Positions 9,686 to 18,173 of a stretch of DNA of 64,000 nucleotides are shown one piece after another. The stretch comes from Candidatus Gastranaerophilales bacterium. GTDB taxonomy: Bacteria > Cyanobacteriota > Vampirovibrionia > Gastranaerophilales > Gastranaerophilaceae. Position numbers and translations under genes: made by a program. Position 1 is the first letter of the stretch; each line of letters opens with the position of its first letter. The notes beneath the pieces are model-generated. The model ran no database searches. It had not been told where the DNA came from and was given only the letters and a program-made list of their open reading frames with translations. The stretch lies in NCBI GenBank assembly GCA_944324365.1, contig CALUWA010000006.1:1113-65112 (forward strand), in the 5' to 3' direction.

Positions 9686-9859
9686 ATATACTTCCTTTCT
9701 GTTCAAAAATTTTAACGGCAGAAAATTCAAGAAGCTTTTGCAAAATCAAATATACGGTTTAGAAATTTCTTTTGTGATAATAATGCTAATTTTAAACAAT
9801 TGACGCGTGTTTTAGTATATGGTATAATAACCTTTGTAAGAGAGATAGGAGTTTTAATT

Positions 9860-10285
9860 ATGGCTTTGTGGCAAATTTTTTCAATAATTGCTGTTATTGC
9901 AGTGATATTGGAAATTATTATTCCGTCCGCATTTTTTCTTAATTTCGCGGTTGCGGGTATTTTGACGGCTTTGTTGTCGTTGTTTGTAAACAGCTGGAAT
10001 GCGTTAATTATAGATTTTATTATCTTGTCTTTGCTTTCAATTTGGCTTATTCGTCCTCTGTTATTAAGGCATCGGGATACTAAGGATAATCAAACCGGAC
10101 TTGACGGAAAATATATAGGAAAAACCGCTAAGGTTACGGAAACTGTTACTAAGAATTCAGGTGCGGTCACTATTTATGATGAGAGATGGGATGCAAGGAT
10201 TCAGGATGGCGAAGATATTCCTGCCGGAAGTGAAGTTAGAATTGTAAGAAATGACAGTTTGATTTTATATGTAGAGAGAATTTAA
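9860..10285 (+). CDS. NfeD-family membrane protein (SPFH partner)
   Basis: ATG 9860 after GATAGGAG. Hydrophobic N-terminal half plus a C-terminal OB-like NfeD domain (GKTAKVTETV...RWDARIQDGEDIPAGSEVRIV). Immediately upstream of an SPFH gene, as is typical. Confidence 0.8.
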   Translation: MALWQIFSIIAVIAVILEIIIPSAFFLNFAVAGILTALLSLFVNSWNALIIDFIILSLLSIWLIRPLLLRHRDTKDNQTGLDGKYIGKTAKVTETVTKNSGAVTIYDERWDARIQDGEDIPAGSEVRIVRNDSLILYVERI

Positions 10286-10297
10286 AAGAAAGGATAA

Positions 10298-11278
10298 TTG
10301 GTGTTTATGCTGATTTTAATTTTATTGATTGCGGTCGTAATTTATGTATTTAAGGGTATAATCATTGTTCAGCAGCAGCAGGAAGTGATTATTGAGCGTA
10401 TGGGACGTTATGAAAGAACACTTACTGCAGGGCTGAATTTCATTTTTCCTATTTTGGAAGCACCGCGTGGTATTTTGACAAAGGTTAGCCAAAGAGGTTT
10501 TGACGGGCAGACATATTATTTGTTAAAACAGGCAGATAGGATTGATAAACGTGAGCAGATGTATGATTTTCCTCGTCAGAATGTAATTACGGAAGATAAC
10601 GTTTCGATTACTATTAATGCGTTAATTTATTTCCAAATTATTGACTCAAAAAGTGCGGTATATGAGATCGCGAATTTGCCGGAAGCTATTGAAAAGCTTA
10701 CCCAGACAAATTTAAGAAACCTTGTAGGTCAAATGGATTTGCAAAAAACATTGACTTCCCGTAATACGATTAATACGGAACTTCGCACAATTCTTGATGA
10801 AGCAACAAACAAATGGGGTGTAAAAGTTAACCGTGTAGAAATTCAAGATATTTTCCCTCCTGCTGATATCCAAGCTTCAATGGATAAATTGATGAAAGCA
10901 GACAGAGAAAAAACCGCAACAATTACGGAAGCTGAAGGTTTGAAAGAAGCCGCAATAAGAAAAGCAGAAGGTGAAAAAGAAGCTGCTATTCGTTCTGCAG
11001 AAGGCGAAAAGCAGGCAGAAATTCTGCGAGCCGAAGGTGTTGCTCAAGCTCGTATTATTGAAGCCGAAGCGGAAAAAGAAGCTATTAATAAAATTATTGA
11101 GGCTTTTGCGGATAAAGGACAGCCTGATAAATACCTGATTGCAATGAAATATCTCGAAACTCTTGGTGATATCTCAAAAGGCCAGAATAACAAAGTTGTT
11201 TATATGCCTTACGAAGCGTCAGGAATTCTGGCTTCAGTTGATGGTATCAAGCAAATGTTTGATAAACCGGCAAAATAA
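10298..11278 (+). CDS. SPFH/band-7 (stomatin-like) protein
   Basis: N-terminal TM segment, SPFH core (IIVQQQQEVIIERMGRY...DNVSITINALIYFQI...) and a C-terminal AEGEKEAAIR coiled-coil repeat region. The start could instead be ATG 10307. Confidence 0.88.
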   Translation: MVFMLILILLIAVVIYVFKGIIIVQQQQEVIIERMGRYERTLTAGLNFIFPILEAPRGILTKVSQRGFDGQTYYLLKQADRIDKREQMYDFPRQNVITEDNVSITINALIYFQIIDSKSAVYEIANLPEAIEKLTQTNLRNLVGQMDLQKTLTSRNTINTELRTILDEATNKWGVKVNRVEIQDIFPPADIQASMDKLMKADREKTATITEAEGLKEAAIRKAEGEKEAAIRSAEGEKQAEILRAEGVAQARIIEAEAEKEAINKIIEAFADKGQPDKYLIAMKYLETLGDISKGQNNKVVYMPYEASGILASVDGIKQMFDKPAK

Positions 11279-11304
11279 ACAAATAAATAATATCATATCC
11301 AAAA

Positions 11305-11338
11305 ACAAGCGGGATTTATATATTTCCCGCTTGTTTTG
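11305..11338. terminator. bidirectional rho-independent terminator
   Basis: ACAAGCGGGA-loop-TCCCGCTTGT hairpin plus T run, between the SPFH gene (+) and pilin-like B (-). Confidence 0.6.
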
Positions 11339-11353
11339 TCTTTATTTCTTCTG

Positions 11354-12172
11354 CTAATGATTGCAGGTTCCATTATACTCCCAAGCTCCATAACCAGATG
11401 AGACCCACCATCCCCCGGCATTGACACAGGACTCATAATCCGTACAAAACTGCGGGGTTTCAGCAGAGCATTCCTGAACATCCGCGAGTTCCTCAGAAAT
11501 ATCGTAAAGCTGTCCTCCTTCGCCTGCGAACCTGAATTTAAGAAGGTCTTTGGTCGCAATGTTAGGGTTATTTTTTCCGTTAACATCGACAACAACATCG
11601 AAGGACGAGAAGGTATCATCTGGAATAACGCCGAAAATCATGCCGTCACCTGTTGTGAACATATAGAGCACATCATCCCAATTAAACGGCGACGGAGAGG
11701 CTTTGCCTTCGACGGCGTACGAGTCCGGGAGTCTTTCAGGCTGGAGCCCGTTAACAGAGTCGTTGATAACATTAAATGCATCTTTGTGTTCCTTAGAAAC
11801 GCAGTCTTTGTCTTCCATTTCGTTACACTTAGCCAAGAAAGGAAGATTAGCAACGTTAAAGATTTCGTAGTGCGCCATCATTAATTTATATCCGTTAGCG
11901 ACAATATTTTTGGCTTTTTTAGCCTGAGCCTCGAGAATAAGCTCCTGGACTTTGGTTTGGAGCATAGGCATGGTAAGTGCAGCGACAACACCAATAACGC
12001 CGAGAGTAATCAAAACTTCGGCTAAAGTGAATGCAGTCACATTGTTACGAGGAGCGGCCCCGAAGATATCTTCATACGCAATGTTATCGGATACAGGGTG
12101 AAAACGCTTGCCTAGCTTATGATTAAGTCCCCCCCCCCCCCCGGAGAAATCAGCTATAATTGAGTTTTTCAT
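11354..12172 (-). CDS. type IV pilin-like protein B, G-tract in frame (ON)
   Basis: SD AAAGGAGGA then ATG 12172. Leader is MKNSIIADFS-GGGGG-LNHKLGKRFHPVSDNIAYEDIFGAAPRNNVTA (47 aa), followed by |FTLAEVLITLGVIGVVAALTMP (F codon 12031-12029). Mature domain contains VDVNGKNNPNIATKDLL, related to the DxN(C/G)xxxPNxxG(R/K)D motif of A, C and E. Confidence 0.8.
   Translation of the reverse strand: MKNSIIADFSGGGGGLNHKLGKRFHPVSDNIAYEDIFGAAPRNNVTAFTLAEVLITLGVIGVVAALTMPMLQTKVQELILEAQAKKAKNIVANGYKLMMAHYEIFNVANLPFLAKCNEMEDKDCVSKEHKDAFNVINDSVNGLQPERLPDSYAVEGKASPSPFNWDDVLYMFTTGDGMIFGVIPDDTFSSFDVVVDVNGKNNPNIATKDLLKFRFAGEGGQLYDISEELADVQECSAETPQFCTDYESCVNAGGWWVSSGYGAWEYNGTCNH
12129..12142 (-). repeat. homopolymeric G14 tract inside the leader codons of pilin-like B
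   Basis: 14 consecutive C on the plus strand, translated as GGGGG. The length keeps the upstream ATG in frame with the pilin domain. Confidence 0.95.
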
Positions 12173-12248
12173 AAGTCCTCCTTTGAGAATTACAGTATAC
12201 ATTATAATTTTAACATATTTTAAAAATTTTTCAAGATTGCTTTTAAGT

Positions 12249-12656
12249 TCAGTGTTTTACAGAACAGTCTTTGCATTCTCCGTAAAGTTCAAACTTATGA
12301 CCGGTGATATTAAAGCCTGTTTCATCTGCCAATTTATTTTCCAATTCTTCCAGCGGGCAGCAGTCTATCGGAATCATTTTATGGCATTTTGTACAAATCA
12401 TATAATGCTTATGGGTTTCACGTACAAGTTCATATCTGGCTCTGTTATCATTCAGTGTTGTAGCTTTATTTACAATACCGAGAGTTACAAGTTTTTCAAT
12501 AATTCTGTATATTGTGGACAGCGAAATTTTTGGGATTTCTTCTTTTGCCATATTATAAATTTCTTCTGTCGTTATTGGACAATTCTGATGTTCAAGAATT
12601 TGCAATACCTTATCTCTGTTTTTTGACGCTCTGCAACCTTCTAATTTCTGCCGCAT
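12249..12656 (-). CDS. Fur-family metalloregulator (Fur/Zur/PerR type not resolvable)
   Basis: Winged-helix N-terminus, HKHY motif and two CxxC pairs (CTKC..., CKDC). ATG 12656 preceded by GAAAGGG is preferred over the track's GTG 12671. Confidence 0.85.
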   Translation of the reverse strand: MRQKLEGCRASKNRDKVLQILEHQNCPITTEEIYNMAKEEIPKISLSTIYRIIEKLVTLGIVNKATTLNDNRARYELVRETHKHYMICTKCHKMIPIDCCPLEELENKLADETGFNITGHKFELYGECKDCSVKH

Positions 12657-12752
12657 AATTAACCCTTTCACGATTATTTTAACATAATTTTTAAAAAATA
12701 TAGCAAAATAACTTGATTATTTTTATTTAAGTTGTCTAATTATAAATGCAAA

Positions 12753-12767
12753 TGCAAATCATTTGCA
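12753..12767. promoter_or_regulatory. perfect 7-1-7 palindrome, candidate auto-operator of the Fur-family gene
   Basis: TGCAAAT-C-ATTTGCA, embedded in AAATGCAAATGCAAATCATTTGCAATAAT about 100 nt upstream of the regulator's start. Confidence 0.5.
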
Positions 12768-12835
12768 ATAATAAAAATTGGAGATAAAATTATGCCGATT
12801 CCGAAAATAAGTTCAATAAAAGCAGGTGCTTATGC

Positions 12836-13525
12836 ACAGAGGATAACGTATCTATCACAATTAATGCTTTAATATATTTTCAGATAATTGATTCAAAAAG
12901 TGCGGTTTATGAGATTGCTAATTTGCCGGAAGCCATTGAAAAACTTACACAGACAAACTTAAGAAACCTTGTTGGTCAGATGGATTTGCAAAAGACACTG
13001 ACTTCACGTAACACAATTAATACGGAACTTCGTACAATCCTTGATGAAGCTACAAACAAATGGGGCGTAAAAGTCAACCGTGTAGAAATTCAAGATATTT
13101 TCCCTCCTGCTGATATCCAAGCTTCAATGGATAAATTGATGAAAGCAGACAGAGAAAAAACCGCAACAATTACGGAAGCTGAAGGTTTGAAAGAAGCCGC
13201 AATAAGAAAAGCAGAAGGTGAAAAAGAAGCTGCTATTCGTTCTGCAGAAGGCGAAAAGCAGGCTGAAATCTTAAGAGCGGAAGGTGTAGCGCAAGCTCGT
13301 ATTATCGAAGCTGAGGCAGAAAAAGAAGCTATTAACAGAATAATTGAAGCTTTCGCTGATAAAGGCCAGCCGGACAAATATTTGATTGCAATGAAATACC
13401 TTGAAACACTTGGTGATATTTCAAAGGGTCAAAATAACAAAGTTGTTTATATGCCGTATGAAGCATCCGGAATTTTGGCATCTGTCGACGGTATTAAGCA
13501 GATGTTTGATAAACCTGCAAAGTAG
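12836..13525 (+). pseudogene. 5'-truncated duplicate of the SPFH gene (last 229 codons)
   Basis: Collinear with 10589-11278 (offset 2247). The encoded peptide is identical except K->R. It lacks the N-terminal ~97 codons, TM segment, SD and ATG. Upstream it joins out of frame to a 26-codon ORF starting ATG 12792. Confidence 0.75.
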
Positions 13526-13550
13526 GTTGATAGTATTTATAAGTAAAGAT

Positions 13551-13581
13551 CGGGGTGCACTTATAGGTGCATCCCGTTTTT
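13551..13581 (+). terminator. rho-independent terminator
   Basis: CGGGGTGCAC-TTATAG-GTGCATCCCG followed by TTTTT. Confidence 0.6.
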
Positions 13582-13630
13582 TACATACAAGTTGCTTGAT
13601 AAATATAAAAAAAATGTTATAATAATTCCT

Positions 13631-14230
13631 ATGAGAAGGATTTTATTTACTTTAACTTTAGGGTTGGGCATATTTTTCCACGGAGCTTCGTATGCAGAAG
13701 AGCTGATTGTTCCTGTGCAAATTGATATAAGGTCGTATGACGGAGTTGAAGTTCCGGCAGGGACTTTTATTCCGGTTGCAAGTGCGCAGGAAATTTCAAC
13801 CCAGTATTGCCAGGATGGTTATAAAGTTCGTTTCACTTCAACAAATGACCTTTATATGCATGAAACAAATATTATACCTATTAATACCGCATTTTTAGGC
13901 TATGTGGAAGAAGTTCACGATCCTGTTGTCGGGACAAATGCTTCGATGAAGGTTAAAATCACGAAAATGGTATTGCCTGATGGTTTTGAAATTCCTGTTC
14001 AGGGTTACATTTATACTTCTAATAATAATATGATTGGCGGTGAAATGTCAGCTCCTGCCGAATGGATTAAAATGCCGCATTACCAGGGTAATATCGGTAT
14101 AAATACCACTTTACAGGTTAGACCCGGCCGGACAAGAAAAATGGGAAGTCATGCCGTTATCACATCAGGGGAAGACAGAATTATAATTTTGACGGATCCT
14201 GTGACTGTGACCCATACTTTAACAAATTGA
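13631..14230 (+). CDS. secreted protein with VirB10/TrbI-like barrel signature (paralog family member 1)
   Basis: Signal peptide MRRILFTLTLGLGIFFHGASYA. Core VPAGTFIPVASAQEIST...GYKVRF...IIPINTAFLGYV...MKVKITKMVLPDGFEIPVQG. Confidence 0.6.
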   Translation: MRRILFTLTLGLGIFFHGASYAEELIVPVQIDIRSYDGVEVPAGTFIPVASAQEISTQYCQDGYKVRFTSTNDLYMHETNIIPINTAFLGYVEEVHDPVVGTNASMKVKITKMVLPDGFEIPVQGYIYTSNNNMIGGEMSAPAEWIKMPHYQGNIGINTTLQVRPGRTRKMGSHAVITSGEDRIIILTDPVTVTHTLTN

Positions 14231-14309
14231 CAAATATTCTATATTTATTAAAATATTGTTATTGATGTGTACTATCAGATATGGGTATTTTATCAGAAAG
14301 GGAAGCTTT

Positions 14310-15053
14310 ATGAGCAAAAAATTATTTATATCACTTGCTGTTTTAATGCTTAGTGCTGGAATTTCTTATTCCGCAGAAAATTATAACTATAGTCAAAATG
14401 CAGTAACTCCGGCATATCAGCCTGCAAATTATAACGGGCTGAACCAGTATGCAAACGGAACTTTAAAGGGGAGTGTTATAACCGTTCCGGCAGGTCAAAG
14501 TTTTCCTGCGGTGGTTACTGTTCCGCTGAATTCCGCTAATTTAACTCTTGGACAAAATGTAACATTGGCATTGGGTTCGGATTTTTATTATAATAATAAT
14601 TTAATTGCTCCTGCAGGAAGTTCTATTACCGGAAGTGTATTGGAAGTTTCCAAAGCGAAGCGCGGTAGCATGAACGGAAAATTGTTGATAAGATTTACCC
14701 AGATTGTGACTCCTTATGGAATACAAATTCCTATTTCTGCTGTAATTAAGACCAGTGATAATACGGGAGTACTTATTGGCGGAACTAAAATGGATGTTAC
14801 AAAAGAATATACAAAGGATTTAACGGTAGGTTCCGCTGCCGGAGCTGTGTCAGGTGTTGTATTTGGCGCACTTGCCGGCGGTGATATCGGCAGAGGTGCA
14901 GCACTCGGAACTGCTGTCGGTGCCGGAGGCGGATTGGTTAAATCTCTATGGGATAAAGGAAACGATGTTGATATCCCTGTAAATTCACAGGTTGAAATTA
15001 CCTTAACCCAGCCGATTACTGTAAACCCGGCAATATATAATTCTAATTATTAG
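14310..15053 (+). CDS. secreted protein with VirB10/TrbI-like signature and C-terminal glycine-zipper (paralog 2)
   Basis: ATG 14310 after GGGAAG, with a signal peptide. Core VPAGQSFPAVVTVPLNSANLTLGQNVTLAL...IAPAGSSITGSV...LLIRFTQIVTPYGIQIPISA, then GSAAGAVSGVVFGALAGGDIGRGAALGTAVGAGGG. Confidence 0.6.
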   Translation: MSKKLFISLAVLMLSAGISYSAENYNYSQNAVTPAYQPANYNGLNQYANGTLKGSVITVPAGQSFPAVVTVPLNSANLTLGQNVTLALGSDFYYNNNLIAPAGSSITGSVLEVSKAKRGSMNGKLLIRFTQIVTPYGIQIPISAVIKTSDNTGVLIGGTKMDVTKEYTKDLTVGSAAGAVSGVVFGALAGGDIGRGAALGTAVGAGGGLVKSLWDKGNDVDIPVNSQVEITLTQPITVNPAIYNSNY

Positions 15054-15136
15054 TAATTAGGGTAATAATTTTATTTTTGATTTAGAATAGAATTATAACG
15101 GAAATTGATTAGGGGAAATTTTAATAAGGAAAAACA

Positions 15137-16342
15137 ATGTCAATCTTAGGTAAATACATAGATAACGTAGAAGAGAGAGAACTAGATGATAATAAAGGGT
15201 ATACATTGCCAGCTGTTATGCGTGAGGACCGTGACAGTATTTCAATGGAAAAAGCCTTTGTATTATCAGTTGTTTTGCATATTGTATTTATTATAGCGGC
15301 AGTTAGTCTTTCGTTTTTGTTGACATGGCTCGGAATTATTATTCCGATTTCAAAAAGACCTCAGCCAAAACTTAATGATATTGAATTTGTCTTGGTTGAA
15401 AAAGAAGATACTCCTATAAATAAAAACACTCCATACAGAGCACATATAAATTCACGTGCCGGAGGGCACCACGATCCGAAACAAAAAGTTTCGCTTCCTT
15501 CACCAAGTCCTTCGACTCCGTCTAAGCCGCAGGCAGCTTCTGCTCCTGCCGCACCAAAAAAATCACCAACTCCGGCTCAAAAGCCTAAGACTACAGCAAA
15601 GCCGAAGGCTCAGCAGTCGATATTTGATAAAATTACAAAACCTGTTCAGAAACCAGTTGAAAAGCCTGCACCTGCGCCAAAGGCGCCGCAGGTTGCCAAG
15701 CCGAATCCTCCAACTGCAAGACCTTCGGTTAAGCCTCCAATGACACCAAAAACTGTTCAAAAACCATCATCTGCGTTTAAAGTGCCGGTTCCTTCAGGCG
15801 GAACAAAAAGCGGTACTTATGCTACAGGCCCTGTAAGCGGTTCGGGAACTGCAAACAAGGGAGGTTCTACAGGCGGCTCTTCAACAGGTTCGGGTAAATT
15901 TACACCGGCTCCGGCTTTGGCTCCTACAGGCAATAGTGCCGGCGGAAGCGGAACTAAGCTTGGGCATGGCGGCGGCGGTTCCGGAGGCTCAGGAAATCCC
16001 GGCCCGGGTAATCCTAATGGCAGACCGGGTATTGATGCAATAAGAGAACCGGATTTCGGACCTTATATGAGAGATTTACAGCGCAGAATTAAACAAAACT
16101 GGAACCCTCCTAAAGGAAATGAAAGTAAACGTGTAGTTTTATTGTTCAAGATTGCAAAAGACGGCAGACTGCTTTCATGTTCGGTATTCAAGTCTTCCGG
16201 ATTGCCAAACGCGGATAAGGCAGCTTTGGATGCAGTTAAATTAACCGCTCCGTTTAAACCGCTCCCGGTTGAATATAAGGGCGCAAGTATAGATATCCAG
16301 TTTACGTTTGACTATAACGTATTTGGCGCTACAGGTTACTAA
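15137..16342 (+). CDS. TonB-family energy transducer
   Basis: N-terminal TM anchor, long Pro/Ala/Lys-rich and Gly/Ser-rich spacer, and a C-terminal TonB_C-like domain (RIKQNWNPP...VVLLFKIAKDGRLLSCSVFKSSGLPNADKAALDAV). Confidence 0.8.
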   Translation: MSILGKYIDNVEERELDDNKGYTLPAVMREDRDSISMEKAFVLSVVLHIVFIIAAVSLSFLLTWLGIIIPISKRPQPKLNDIEFVLVEKEDTPINKNTPYRAHINSRAGGHHDPKQKVSLPSPSPSTPSKPQAASAPAAPKKSPTPAQKPKTTAKPKAQQSIFDKITKPVQKPVEKPAPAPKAPQVAKPNPPTARPSVKPPMTPKTVQKPSSAFKVPVPSGGTKSGTYATGPVSGSGTANKGGSTGGSSTGSGKFTPAPALAPTGNSAGGSGTKLGHGGGGSGGSGNPGPGNPNGRPGIDAIREPDFGPYMRDLQRRIKQNWNPPKGNESKRVVLLFKIAKDGRLLSCSVFKSSGLPNADKAALDAVKLTAPFKPLPVEYKGASIDIQFTFDYNVFGATGY

Positions 16343-16378
16343 AAAATGTATTAGATTAAATAATGAGGATTAAACACT

Positions 16379-17020
16379 ATGGAACTTTTATGGAACTCAA
16401 TTAAAATGGATTGGCCGGTATTATTACCGATTCTTATCTGTGCATTGCTTGTTGTACAGGTAGTTATTCAAAGGATGTCTGTTTATAACAAAAACAGACG
16501 TGATATAAACAAGCTTATCCCGCGTGTACAAAAAAAATTAGCTGCTAATGATCTGCAAGGTGTGCAAGATATTGCTGTTCAATGTGGGGGGGTAATCGGT
16601 GAAGTTTTGGAAGAATCTGTCAGAATTTTTTCAGATCAAAGAGAAGGGTTTTCACGTTCTTTCGATATTTCGGCAATGCTTGCGACAAGAAAATTAGAAA
16701 AACATTTGACAATATTAGGTACTATAGGCGGTGTTGCTCCGTTCTTAGGTTTGTTTGGTACTGTTGTCAGAATTTTGTACACATTCCAAGATCTTGCAAC
16801 TCAGGGTAACCAGTCAGCAGCTGTTGCAATGGGTATCGGTTCTGCGTTGATTGCAACGGCTTTTGGTTTGATTGTTGCGATTGTTGCAGTTGTGTTTTTC
16901 AACTCTTTCCAGTCTGTTGTTAAACATTATGAGTATGATTTCCAATTGATAAAACTTTTGTTCTTGAGTTTTGTTGATTCGGAAGAAGCAGCATCTGCAA
17001 AATCTGCTTCAAATGTGTAG
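16379..17020 (+). CDS. exbB: MotA/TolQ/ExbB proton-channel protein
   Basis: Three-TM topology with the conserved GTIGGVAPFLGLFGTV and ALIATAFGLIVAI segments. Confidence 0.88.
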   Translation: MELLWNSIKMDWPVLLPILICALLVVQVVIQRMSVYNKNRRDINKLIPRVQKKLAANDLQGVQDIAVQCGGVIGEVLEESVRIFSDQREGFSRSFDISAMLATRKLEKHLTILGTIGGVAPFLGLFGTVVRILYTFQDLATQGNQSAAVAMGIGSALIATAFGLIVAIVAVVFFNSFQSVVKHYEYDFQLIKLLFLSFVDSEEAASAKSASNV

Positions 17021-17046
17021 TTAATTTAGAGGAATAATTTAGAACA

Positions 17047-17505
17047 ATGGCAATGAGTTCAAAACAGGGTAAACTTTTTACCGAAATAAATATAACACCT
17101 TTGACAGATATCTTTTTAGTACTGTTGATTATAATGATGGTAATTGCGCCGACCTTTCAGTCTATGGATAACTCAATCTCCATTCCTGAGATAAACAGCG
17201 GTATTGCAATAGAGCAGAAGAACGCAATAATTTCCATCACAAAGACAGGACTTATGTATGTAAATGGCAGAGAGATTAATCCGGAAACTCTTGTTGATGA
17301 GTTAACGGCACTCAGACCTACACTCGAAAAACCGGAAGTTGTTGTTAAAGCTGACGAGTCAGTAAAAAGTGCCGAAATTCTAAGAGTTATGGATGCAGCT
17401 CAGGAAGCTGAATTTAAGAAGCTTATTGTTGCGGGTGAACCGTTGAGTAAAAAAGAACAAAAAAATCTTGAAACAGAATCTCTAAAACACAAGAAGGGGG
17501 CGTAA
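17047..17505 (+). CDS. exbD: ExbD/TolR biopolymer transport protein
   Basis: EINITPLTDIFLVLLIIMMV N-terminal signature. Confidence 0.88.
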   Translation: MAMSSKQGKLFTEINITPLTDIFLVLLIIMMVIAPTFQSMDNSISIPEINSGIAIEQKNAIISITKTGLMYVNGREINPETLVDELTALRPTLEKPEVVVKADESVKSAEILRVMDAAQEAEFKKLIVAGEPLSKKEQKNLETESLKHKKGA

Positions 17506-17508
17506 ATT

Positions 17509-17901
17509 ATGCCTGGAGAAAGAAAAACTTTTAACGAAATAAATATTACACCTCTTACAGATATCTTTTTGGTATTGCTGATTATAATGATGGTAATTGC
17601 GCCGTTGTTAGACCAGCAGGGGCTTAATTTGACTGTGCCTGAAAATGTTGCCCAGGAGCAAATGGATGATAAAGAGTCTAAAATTTTGACTGTAAGTATT
17701 ACTGCAGACAACAAATATTATATCCAGGGCGAAGAAATCCAGACTTCTGAATTGGAAACAATATTAAAAACACAGGCTAAAGATTACCCGGATGGTATGC
17801 TGATTCAAACAGACGGTGATGCAACGCATGGTGCGGTTGTTAAAGTTATGGATTCTGCCAGAAATTCCGGTATTACGAGTATATCAGTTTCAGCGATGTA
17901 A
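17509..17901 (+). CDS. exbD: ExbD/TolR biopolymer transport protein (second copy)
   Basis: EINITPLTDIFLVLLIIMMV signature; tandem paralog of the preceding gene. Confidence 0.88.
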   Translation: MPGERKTFNEINITPLTDIFLVLLIIMMVIAPLLDQQGLNLTVPENVAQEQMDDKESKILTVSITADNKYYIQGEEIQTSELETILKTQAKDYPDGMLIQTDGDATHGAVVKVMDSARNSGITSISVSAM

Positions 17902-17923
17902 AATTCTCAAAATTTAATACTAT

Positions 17924-17960
17924 GAAATCAGCATTTGGCTAATTCAAATGCTGATTTTGT
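17924..17960 (+). terminator. rho-independent terminator
   Basis: AAATCAGCATTTG-loop-CAAATGCTGATTT followed by TGTT. Confidence 0.6.
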
Positions 17961-18173
17961 TATATATCTTTATGAAAATTAAAGTTTTTGTAATATTATG
18001 CCGTTGTACTGGAAAAATCAGTGTTTTTTAGCTTTAATAGATAGAGGAGGGCTAGTAATGTAGCTGGTTTTAAATAGTAAATTGTTAATAATTGTTTACA
18101 AATTAGCAATTTTTTATATATTTTATTGTTTATATTATTATACGTATACAAATAAAAATAGTGAGGGATATTT

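Follow-up and report, generated by a model that had tools for sequence, protein, structure and literature searches.

We analysed a 64,000-nucleotide stretch of DNA (the window) from a 2.05-Mb metagenome-assembled genome (MAG) of Candidatus Gastranaerophilales (Melainabacteria), and in it a locus at which a complete gene of the SPFH/Band 7 family is separated by a small cassette from a second, 5′-truncated copy of itself (SPFH′). The gene order is NfeD, SPFH, a pilin-like gene and a Fur-family regulator gene (both on the minus strand), truncated SPFH and a gene that starts at 13631 (the 13631 gene). Below, the species of the window is called W and a sister species of the same Gastranaerophilales genus is called D; alleles of W are referred to as resident-type and those of D as donor-type, L133 is a contig of D, and X is a gene that adjoins Fur in D. 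The features of the locus, in window coordinates, are as follows.

9800 to 10285, plus strand: NfeD-family gene, resident DNA (Pfam PF01957, 1.6e-14).
10298 to 11278, plus strand: full-length, chimeric SPFH/Band 7 gene (Pfam PF01145, 9.4e-39; called as 323 amino acids from ATG 10307).
10589 to 11278, plus strand: repeat copy 1, 690 nt in the pairwise alignment.
10829 to 11016, plus strand: identical core in copy 1, resident-type; the donor differs at 19 sites (10846–11005).
11162 to 11172: resident-to-donor switch in copy 1 (last resident-type site 11161, first donor-type site 11173).
11166 to 12835: first part of the donor segment (last 113 nt of SPFH, intergenic hairpin, pilin-like gene, Fur, Fur-X intergenic region, first 44 nt of X).
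11354 to 12172, minus strand: pilin-like gene (ATG 12172; poly-G tract of 14 residues, G14, at 12129–12142; N-terminal methylation motif).
12249 to 12656, minus strand: Fur-family regulator of 135 amino acids, an extra, xenologous copy (PF01475, 7.9e-27).
12672 to 12791: divergent Fur-X intergenic region with a 7-1-7 palindrome, 100% identical to L133.
12792 to 12872, plus strand: remnant of donor gene X (347 amino acids in the donor), its ATG and 44 nt fused out of frame to SPFH′.
12835 to 12836: novel joint between X codon 15 and the middle of SPFH, both sides donor-type, without microhomology.
12836 to 13525, plus strand: repeat copy 2, the 5′-truncated SPFH; donor-type at 12836–13075 and 13264–13408, resident-type in the core and from 13420.
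13076 to 13263, plus strand: identical core in copy 2, a resident-type patch within donor-type sequence, a conversion or gap-repair tract.
13409 to 13419: donor-to-resident switch in copy 2, the reciprocal joint (11161/11173 + 2247).
13526 to 14230, plus strand: native downstream DNA with a terminator-like hairpin (13551–13576) and the 199-amino-acid secreted-protein gene (ATG 13631).

The two copies of the SPFH 3′ part form a gapless, collinear pair (10589–11278 and 12836–13525, 690 nt each, offset by 2247 nt) of direct repeats around an insert of 1557 nt, and they are the only two copies of the repeat in the whole 2.05-Mb genome. On the right, their similarity ends exactly at the stop codons (TAA versus TAG); its left limit is 10589/12836. 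They differ at 75 positions (89.1% identity), of which 69 are third, five are first and one is a second codon position, and the sole amino-acid difference is K/R within EAIN(K/R)II. The longest run free of differences (10829–11016 = 13076–13263) is 188 nt long, a result seen in none of 200,000 permutations of the differences. Alignment thus bore out the preliminary description of this DNA, which had reported a 690-bp collinear duplication with mostly third-codon differences, a single K/R replacement and an identical core of 188 nt. The Nei–Gojobori count of copy 1 against copy 2 was 73 synonymous differences to one non-synonymous difference, corresponding to a synonymous divergence (dS) of 0.80 (1.66 without the core), a non-synonymous divergence (dN) of 0.0019 and dN/dS of 0.002. 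As had also been proposed there, the divergence between the copies, judged by this ratio, arose between functional genes in two lineages.

Direct repeats are also the topology that an in-place tandem duplication in the W lineage, with later divergence of the copies, would leave. Under that explanation, however, a dS of 0.8–1.7 with a dN/dS of 0.002 would have to have built up over a truncated copy incapable of selection at the protein level. Each half of the repeat exactly matches a different extant allele, and the cassette is 97–100% identical to another species against 81–83% for its flanks (see below). In-place duplication has, in our estimate, next to no chance of being correct.

Relatives of the locus were found through exact-protein look-ups in public assemblies, with queries taken from the ATG starts of gene callers (open reading frames (ORFs) extended to GTG or TTG starts matched nothing). 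The order NfeD-SPFH-pilin-Fur-SPFH′(200 amino acids)-13631 gene was present in at least nine metagenome assemblies, independent of one another and produced by different assemblers; examples bearing the duplication are BRZ_PT, BRZ_IT, BRZ_PN, BRZ_PV, BRZ_LF, ONAT22 6814547/6814473/6814477, GCA_964320235 and ERZ18533889. Five W contigs from five samples, with at least three haplotypes (BRZ_E (60 kb), ON489, BRZ_RP, ON522 and ON582), lack the cassette, and in them NfeD-SPFH is followed directly by the 13631 gene, across a 105-nt intergenic region that is the same as that after copy 2 of the window. The segment between the repeats, suspected from the start to be an inserted cassette, is thus absent from conspecific strains, and the synteny expected of an empty site, NfeD-SPFH directly before the 13631 gene, is present in all five.

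The cassette-free allele is of the copy 1 type as far as 11161 and of the copy 2 type from 11173 on. It differs from copy 1 at three sites in the left part, one in the core, one in the middle part and 18 in the end, and from the end of copy 2 at 0 of 113 sites. Cassette-free strains differ from the window by 0.3–2% inside ~9800–15100 and have private single-nucleotide polymorphisms in SPFH; together with their diverged flanks, this argues that the cassette-free state is ancestral and that these strains are not a set of revertants.

Species D is represented by the closest related genome found, G015 (contigs L004/L033, L023/L121 and L025), and by many other contigs, and it was found together with W in sample BRZ_E. 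Its contig L133 has NfeD-SPFH-pilin(−)-Fur(−)-X(+) contiguously. The agreement of the window with L133 changes abruptly from segment to segment.

NfeD: 81%.
SPFH 5′ part: 82%.
Copy 1 left (10589–10828): 87%.
Core: 90%.
Copy 1 middle (11017–11165): 83%.
11166–11353: 100%.
11354–11800: one mismatch.
Fur: 97.2%.
12672–12835: 100%.
Copy 2 left: 0 of 240 sites differ.
Copy 2 middle: 0 of 149 sites differ.
Copy 2 core: 19 differences.
Copy 2, last 113 nt: 18 differences.

Along the full-length SPFH gene, identity to L133 is 82–87% up to 11165 and 100% from 11166. Indeed, the left part of copy 2, the D core, the middle part of copy 2 and the end of copy 1, placed in a row, are the L133 allele letter for letter; outside its core and end, copy 2 is 100% identical to this sister species, as expected from the earlier suggestion of a foreign allele from another lineage. 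The resident and donor SPFH alleles are 86.4% identical, and the longest run they share is 23 nt. Fur with the Fur-X intergenic region (12249–12835) differs from the window at 1 of 587 positions in each of the D contigs L121 (of G015) and L117. A protein identical to the cassette Fur is present in D contexts, where its gene lies next to, and is transcribed divergently from, that for the 347-amino-acid X. NfeD, 81% identical to L133, is invariant across all cassette-bearing strains.

The site patterns show that the full-length SPFH gene is resident up to 11161 and donor-derived from 11173, and that copy 2 switches in the opposite direction at the corresponding position. Copies 1 and 2 are thus reciprocal chimeras, with both switches in the same 11-nt interval. 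The foreign DNA, read as 11166–12835 followed by 12836–13412, is one contiguous, circularly permuted 2247-bp segment of the donor, and the length of this permuted unit, 2247 nt, equals the repeat period. Two switches in one 11-nt interval and a permuted donor segment point to the topology of a single crossover (Campbell-type). Since copy 1 remains a complete SPFH gene, the insertion was non-disruptive.

The description that we started from had treated copy 1 as native and copy 2 as foreign, and this did not survive the comparison: in their last 113 nt, copy 1 is donor and copy 2 is native. In its full form, this explanation holds that copy 1 is wholly native, that copy 2 is wholly foreign and came as a fragment with the cassette, and that the core was patched later by conversion. 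It would account for the donor-type left and middle parts of copy 2 and for the core as a conversion tract. It fails over the final 113 nt of the two copies: in copy 2 these match the cassette-free W allele without a difference and depart from the donor at 18 sites, and in copy 1 they match the donor at 100% and depart from the cassette-free allele at 18 sites. The intergenic DNA follows the same pattern, being native after copy 2 and of donor origin after copy 1. We regard this explanation as very unlikely.

At the joint 12835/12836 the two ends of the donor segment meet. In native D contexts (L117 and L121 were compared), the start of gene X runs across this position as ATG CCG ATT ... GCT TAT GC/T CTT GGA, the slash marking the joint; the window reads ...GC/A CAG AGG ATA ACG, which is SPFH from the equivalent of 10589. 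The joint is the same in every cassette-bearing assembly. Because both of its sides are donor-type, it must have been made from donor DNA, by closure of a small circle or by tandem duplication within a D cell. A search with the 34-nt joint found no match in JGI metagenome contigs, a collection apparently without these gut samples.

An illegitimate joint without microhomology, accompanied by one homologous joint in copy 1, would also result from homology-facilitated illegitimate recombination, in which a linear donor fragment, anchored in SPFH on the left, had its X codon 15 joined to the recipient SPFH at 10589. Such recombination, with one homologous anchor and one illegitimate joint without microhomology, was reportedly described by de Vries and Wackernagel in 2002. 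It predicts a recipient-type sequence beyond the joint, and hence an all-resident copy 2, but the illegitimate joint here links two donor sequences: the left end of copy 2 (from 12836) is donor-type in every strain, and 389 nt of the window's copy 2 outside the core are 100% donor, for which no resident source exists. We therefore give this route very little credence.

The unit keeps the whole Fur-X intergenic region, the X Shine–Dalgarno sequence, ATG 12792 and 44 nt of X. Copy 2 had been called promoterless; in fact it sits directly behind a complete Fur-X intergenic region, a ribosome-binding site and these 44 nt. The X-SPFH′ fusion is out of frame and makes an ORF of 26 codons that stops at TAA 12870–12872. 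Copy 2 itself is without an obvious start: its first in-frame ATG, GTG or TTG is TTG 12923, and gene callers report a 200-amino-acid ORF at 12923–13525. Judged by this arrangement, copy 2 is probably best regarded as a transcribed remnant.

Taken together, we consider duplicative, Campbell-type homologous integration of foreign DNA to be the most probable history of the locus, with a rough probability of 80%. In this scheme, a 2247-bp stretch of D, from about SPFH codon 98 to X codon 15, would have had its ends joined illegitimately, X-end to SPFH-start, whether by closing into a small circle or by being duplicated in tandem, with a novel joint. The permuted segment would then have paired homeologously (86% identity) with the resident SPFH of a W chromosome with the ancestral order NfeD-SPFH-13631 gene, and one reciprocal exchange at 11162–11172 would have inserted it. 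On the left, the product would be copy 1 (resident left part and donor end), a complete and functional SPFH gene; on the right, the donor cassette would be followed by copy 2 (donor left part and resident end) and by the native downstream DNA. The core would have been converted or gap-repaired at or soon after integration, and the repeats would afterwards have kept exchanging sequence while the cassette-bearing haplotype spread among W strains. Directly seen are the donor and recipient alleles, the reciprocal chimeras, the joint, the empty site and the mosaics of the strains; the physical form of the intermediate (a circle or a tandem-duplication fragment), the way in which the DNA entered and any continuing excision are inferred.

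The genome encodes ComEC (815 amino acids), DprA and MutS. With ComEC and DprA encoded, natural transformation is a plausible entry route for the donor DNA, though these genes also occur in non-competent bacteria.

The identical core was accounted for by comparison with D. The cores of D differ from that of W at 19–21 of 188 positions, the same level of divergence as in the flanks; in copy 2, donor-type sites at 10828 and 11017 (copy-1 numbering, as below) enclose the core. Every cassette-bearing strain has a resident-type core in both copies, and a donor-type core was never seen in copy 2. A resident-type core within donor-type sequence indicates a conversion tract, in the direction from resident to donor. 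All strains share the limits of the core, on the left between 10828 and 10846 and on the right between 11005 and 11017, which argues that the patch arose once. Of the proposal of a later gene-conversion patch, then, the conversion tract stands, since the donor differs at 19 sites; the limits common to all strains suggest, instead of a later patch, one made at or soon after integration. Its origin would fit both gap or heteroduplex repair during integration (ends-in, with the recipient sequence copied into both repeats) and one early conversion after integration.

Outside the core, the cassette-bearing strains fall into several mosaic classes.

Class A (the window, BRZ_IT, ON477): switch at 11161/11173.
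Class B (ON547, GCA_964320235): switch at the right edge of the core (11005–11023), copy 1 being resident-core-donor and copy 2 donor-core-resident.
Class C (BRZ_PT, BRZ_PN, ON473): copy 2 resident-type from 10711, copy 1 resident-type to 11185.
Other mosaics (L130, L155, L156, L163, L165): further small patches.

These differences from strain to strain indicate that the repeats keep recombining. Class A turns into class B if the two copies exchange their 11017/11023–11161 segments reciprocally. The right limit of the swapped segment has only 11 nt of identity, and the difference is therefore not a phasing error of an assembler.

Several of these observations, with others, weigh against the scheme of integration proposed above. 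The reciprocal A/B swap is impossible by one-way gene conversion; it needs a double crossover (formally, excision and re-integration), a second integration or the segregation of an unrepaired symmetric heteroduplex. With only 11 nt of identity, the crossover interval of the window is a very short one for exchange by RecA. ON547 and GCA_964320235 switch instead at the edge of the core (11005–11023), and either pattern may be the original one: the structure of class B is the simpler, and class A requires an exchange within 11 nt. No circular or tandem form of the donor with a donor-type core was found among the contigs, and all of the evidence comes from metagenome assemblies.

This last point raises the possibility that the locus is an assembly chimera, in which W and D reads were mixed or the core is a collapsed consensus. 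The window is from a MAG, at least one sample contains both D and W, and the 188-nt core is longer than common k-mer sizes. Neither the joint nor the 11-nt switch, however, shares k-mers that an assembler could use, yet the structure was found in at least nine samples processed by different pipelines. Assemblies within a mosaic class are identical (BRZ_IT and ON477 have the pattern of the window; BRZ_PT, BRZ_PN and ON473 have another). In copy 2 no donor-type core was ever found, although such a core would have only one way to assemble with its flanks. An assembly artefact is thus extremely improbable as the source of the structure.

We also looked for the means of a dedicated mobile element that would target SPFH with a recombinase or transposase supplied in trans. 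The cassette is polymorphic for presence and absence, and some contigs have cassette DNA on both sides of SPFH′, as such an element would lead one to expect. No recombinase gene was found in or near the unit, and no target-site duplication. A scan of the ORFs and of Pfam matches in or near the unit gave no integrase or transposase ORF, the only ORFs inside being the pilin-like gene, Fur and the 26-codon remnant, and no terminal inverted repeats were found at the ends of the unit. Moreover, the switch points vary between strains and lie anywhere in the homology, as for general recombination and not as for a fixed att core. A dedicated element is, on these grounds, highly improbable.

The contigs with cassette DNA on both sides of SPFH′ are L154, L155, L157 and L165. 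L157 matches the unit predicted from the window at 100% identity, and L165 spans 2229 of its 2247 nt; all four contigs are short and of low coverage, and both of these agreements, like the flanking cassette DNA itself, could come from assembly paths through an unresolved repeat. We considered these contigs, which would be the junction of a circle or the middle copy in a tandem array, as proof of such a form and downgraded them, as a direct repeat with an identical stretch longer than k gives the same cycle in the assembly graph. From the arrangement of the repeats, deletion or loop-out of the cassette between them is plausible. An extension of integration by general recombination is that the 2247-bp unit is a recombinase-free, hitch-hiking cassette that would cycle between a free circular or tandem form and an integrated one, with half of SPFH as its attachment sequence. 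We think this unlikely, if less so than any of the rival explanations discussed here. If it were true, the phase-variable pilin gene and the extra Fur-type regulator would be moved between gut Melainabacteria strains and species, and the differing switch points of the strains would be independent re-integrations and not conversions.

The cassette (11279–12835) has 0–2 mismatches among all W strains. Beyond it, the block at ~9800–15100 is identical among cassette-bearing strains except for the repeat mosaics, and differences of ~3% begin at 15101, in the TonB region. This pattern would fit one recent integration event in a single resident haplotype, with the linked block spreading afterwards, and it looks like a recent spread of the cassette haplotype by recombination. 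ON582 was considered as a revertant formed by a crossover in the core (ON547 copy 1 left part, core and copy 2 right part). We rejected this as unproven: the downstream gene of ON582 differs from the cassette haplotype at 9 of 597 sites, and ON582 is more likely to be an independent resident haplotype.

Downstream of the repeats, the 13631 gene heads a TonB-ExbB-ExbD cluster. Other species of the genus keep GpsA-PSP1-orf-NfeD-SPFH and likewise the 13631 gene-TonB block, with the two blocks on separate contigs; the decisive comparison is for this reason that within W and with its nearest sister. In the relatives L027–L031 (compared with window 13592–18000), the DNA upstream of the 13631 gene-TonB-ExbBD block is a homologue of G000:C7:54064-56500 of the window's own genome. 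The adjacency of SPFH and the 13631 gene is probably an older, species-specific rearrangement. An inversion or translocation joining two loci was rejected as the origin of the present structure, as conspecific strains show this adjacency as the ancestral state of W.

Within the cassette, the translation of the pilin-like gene shows an N-terminal methylation motif, FTLAEVLITLGVIG. Its match to PF07963 (19.1 bits) is below the cut-off of 21.2, and its matches to ComGC, ComGE and GspG are weak. The length of its poly-G tract varies in otherwise identical cassettes, being G14 in the window, BRZ_PT, BRZ_PN and ON473, G13 in BRZ_IT, ON477 and ON547, and G16 in GCA_964320235, and the called ORFs, of 272/282 or 228 amino acids, track the length of the tract. 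The variation provides population-level support for phase variation of the gene. In the donor contig L133, an 86-nt deletion takes out the G tract of the pilin gene. The surroundings of the pilin genes are themselves polymorphic in D: after the pilin gene next to SPFH come Fur-X in L133 and glycosyltransferase genes in L135, and in L117 and L118 Fur-X adjoins pilin-DMT_6. Breakpoints in D lie near 11405–11542 and 12240, which suggests that recombination between pilin paralogs may have made them. Between the convergent SPFH and pilin-like genes lies a GC-rich hairpin (11302–11337; AAAACAAGCGGGA...TCCCGCTTGTTTT), which is donor-derived, 100% identical to L133, and looks like a bidirectional terminator.

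The cassette Fur matches PF01475 with 94.2 bits (cut-off 23.1) over model positions 3–121 of 121; all of its matches to NCBIfam equivalogs for Fur, PerR and Zur fall below their cut-offs. The genome of the window has a resident Fur paralog (G000:C7:59843-60423) that is 83% identical to it, in an X-Fur locus (G000:C7:57432-60423) that is the native context and is 82–83% identical to the cassette version. As W has this X-Fur locus of its own on C7, the cassette Fur is an additional, xenologous copy, and cassette-bearing strains carry two Fur-family paralogs of different species origins. Between Fur and the start of X is a perfect palindrome, TGCAAAT-C-ATTTGCA (12753–12767), which is 100% kept in the donor and overlaps a promoter-like site for Fur on the minus strand, TTGCAA-18-TATAAT.

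The kind of event proposed here is already known. Insertion-duplication mutagenesis is used in Streptococcus as well as in other bacteria. In Neisseria, it was done with non-replicating circles that carry an internal or 3′ fragment of a gene (PMC11658436). As in Campbell-type integration of this sort, the W locus has direct repeats around an insert, both copies are reciprocal chimeras, the insertion would be reversible via the repeats, and a fragment that contains the 3′ end regenerates one intact gene. Unlike at the bench, there is no vector, marker or replicon, the "circle" being a permuted 2247-bp stretch of the chromosome of another species, and the pairing was homeologous (86% identity) and took place in wild populations of an uncultured lineage.

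Natural transformation of Streptococcus pneumoniae gives rise to tandem duplications that make merodiploids, by pairing at alternative positions or between chromatids (Johnston et al. 2013, PMC3784515). The likeness to the W locus is that incoming DNA pairs at alternative positions and duplicates by homologous exchange, possibly between sister chromatids and with no dedicated recombinase, and that the duplicated copy is free to change. The pneumococcal duplications differ in that they are of 100–900 kb, lie between repeats derived from insertion sequences (IS) and involve self DNA (PMC3784515), whereas in W the duplicated stretch measures 690 nt, its two copies flank 1.56 kb of foreign sequence, and the DNA that came in already contained the novel joint. 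Transformation between species across 15–23% divergence in Bacillus subtilis is RecA-mediated, of low frequency, and proceeds from short segments of identity (PMC6382021). The 14% divergence here is comparable to this range, but the B. subtilis work concerns replacement of homologous segments and not duplicative insertion (PMC6382021).

A literature search for natural Campbell-type homeologous integrations gave nothing specific. Minimal mobile elements of Neisseria are cassettes that are swapped between conserved flanking genes by transformation and homologous recombination. Like them, the W cassette is small, has no mobility genes, is present or absent between conserved neighbours and depends on general recombination; the Neisserial elements differ in moving by double crossover in both flanks, with no duplication, while here one gene provides the homology and is duplicated.

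The W locus is worth noting for how complete its natural record is and for its occurrence in uncultured gut Melainabacteria. Single-crossover duplicative integration is routine at the bench and is rarely documented in nature with every component available. Here the donor allele (100% identity) and the empty recipient site are available, along with the illegitimate joint, the interval of the crossover and a number of recombinants that arose later. In annotation, the 200-amino-acid "Band_7" ORF that many assemblies report should count as a remnant of recombination, not as a gene family member in its own right.

The Gastranaerophilales are uncultured, non-photosynthetic relatives of the Cyanobacteria that live in the gut. 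The W locus indicates that in this group genes cross a species divergence of ~14–19% by general recombination alone, that a fragment of a housekeeping gene can act as a landing pad without inactivation of the gene, and that short, diverged repeats go on exchanging sequence in the wild. To its new host, the cassette delivers a second Fur-family regulator and a gene for a phase-variable surface protein, and the truncated SPFH, now behind a promoter region that is probably under Fur control, may be raw material for regulatory or dominant-negative effects.

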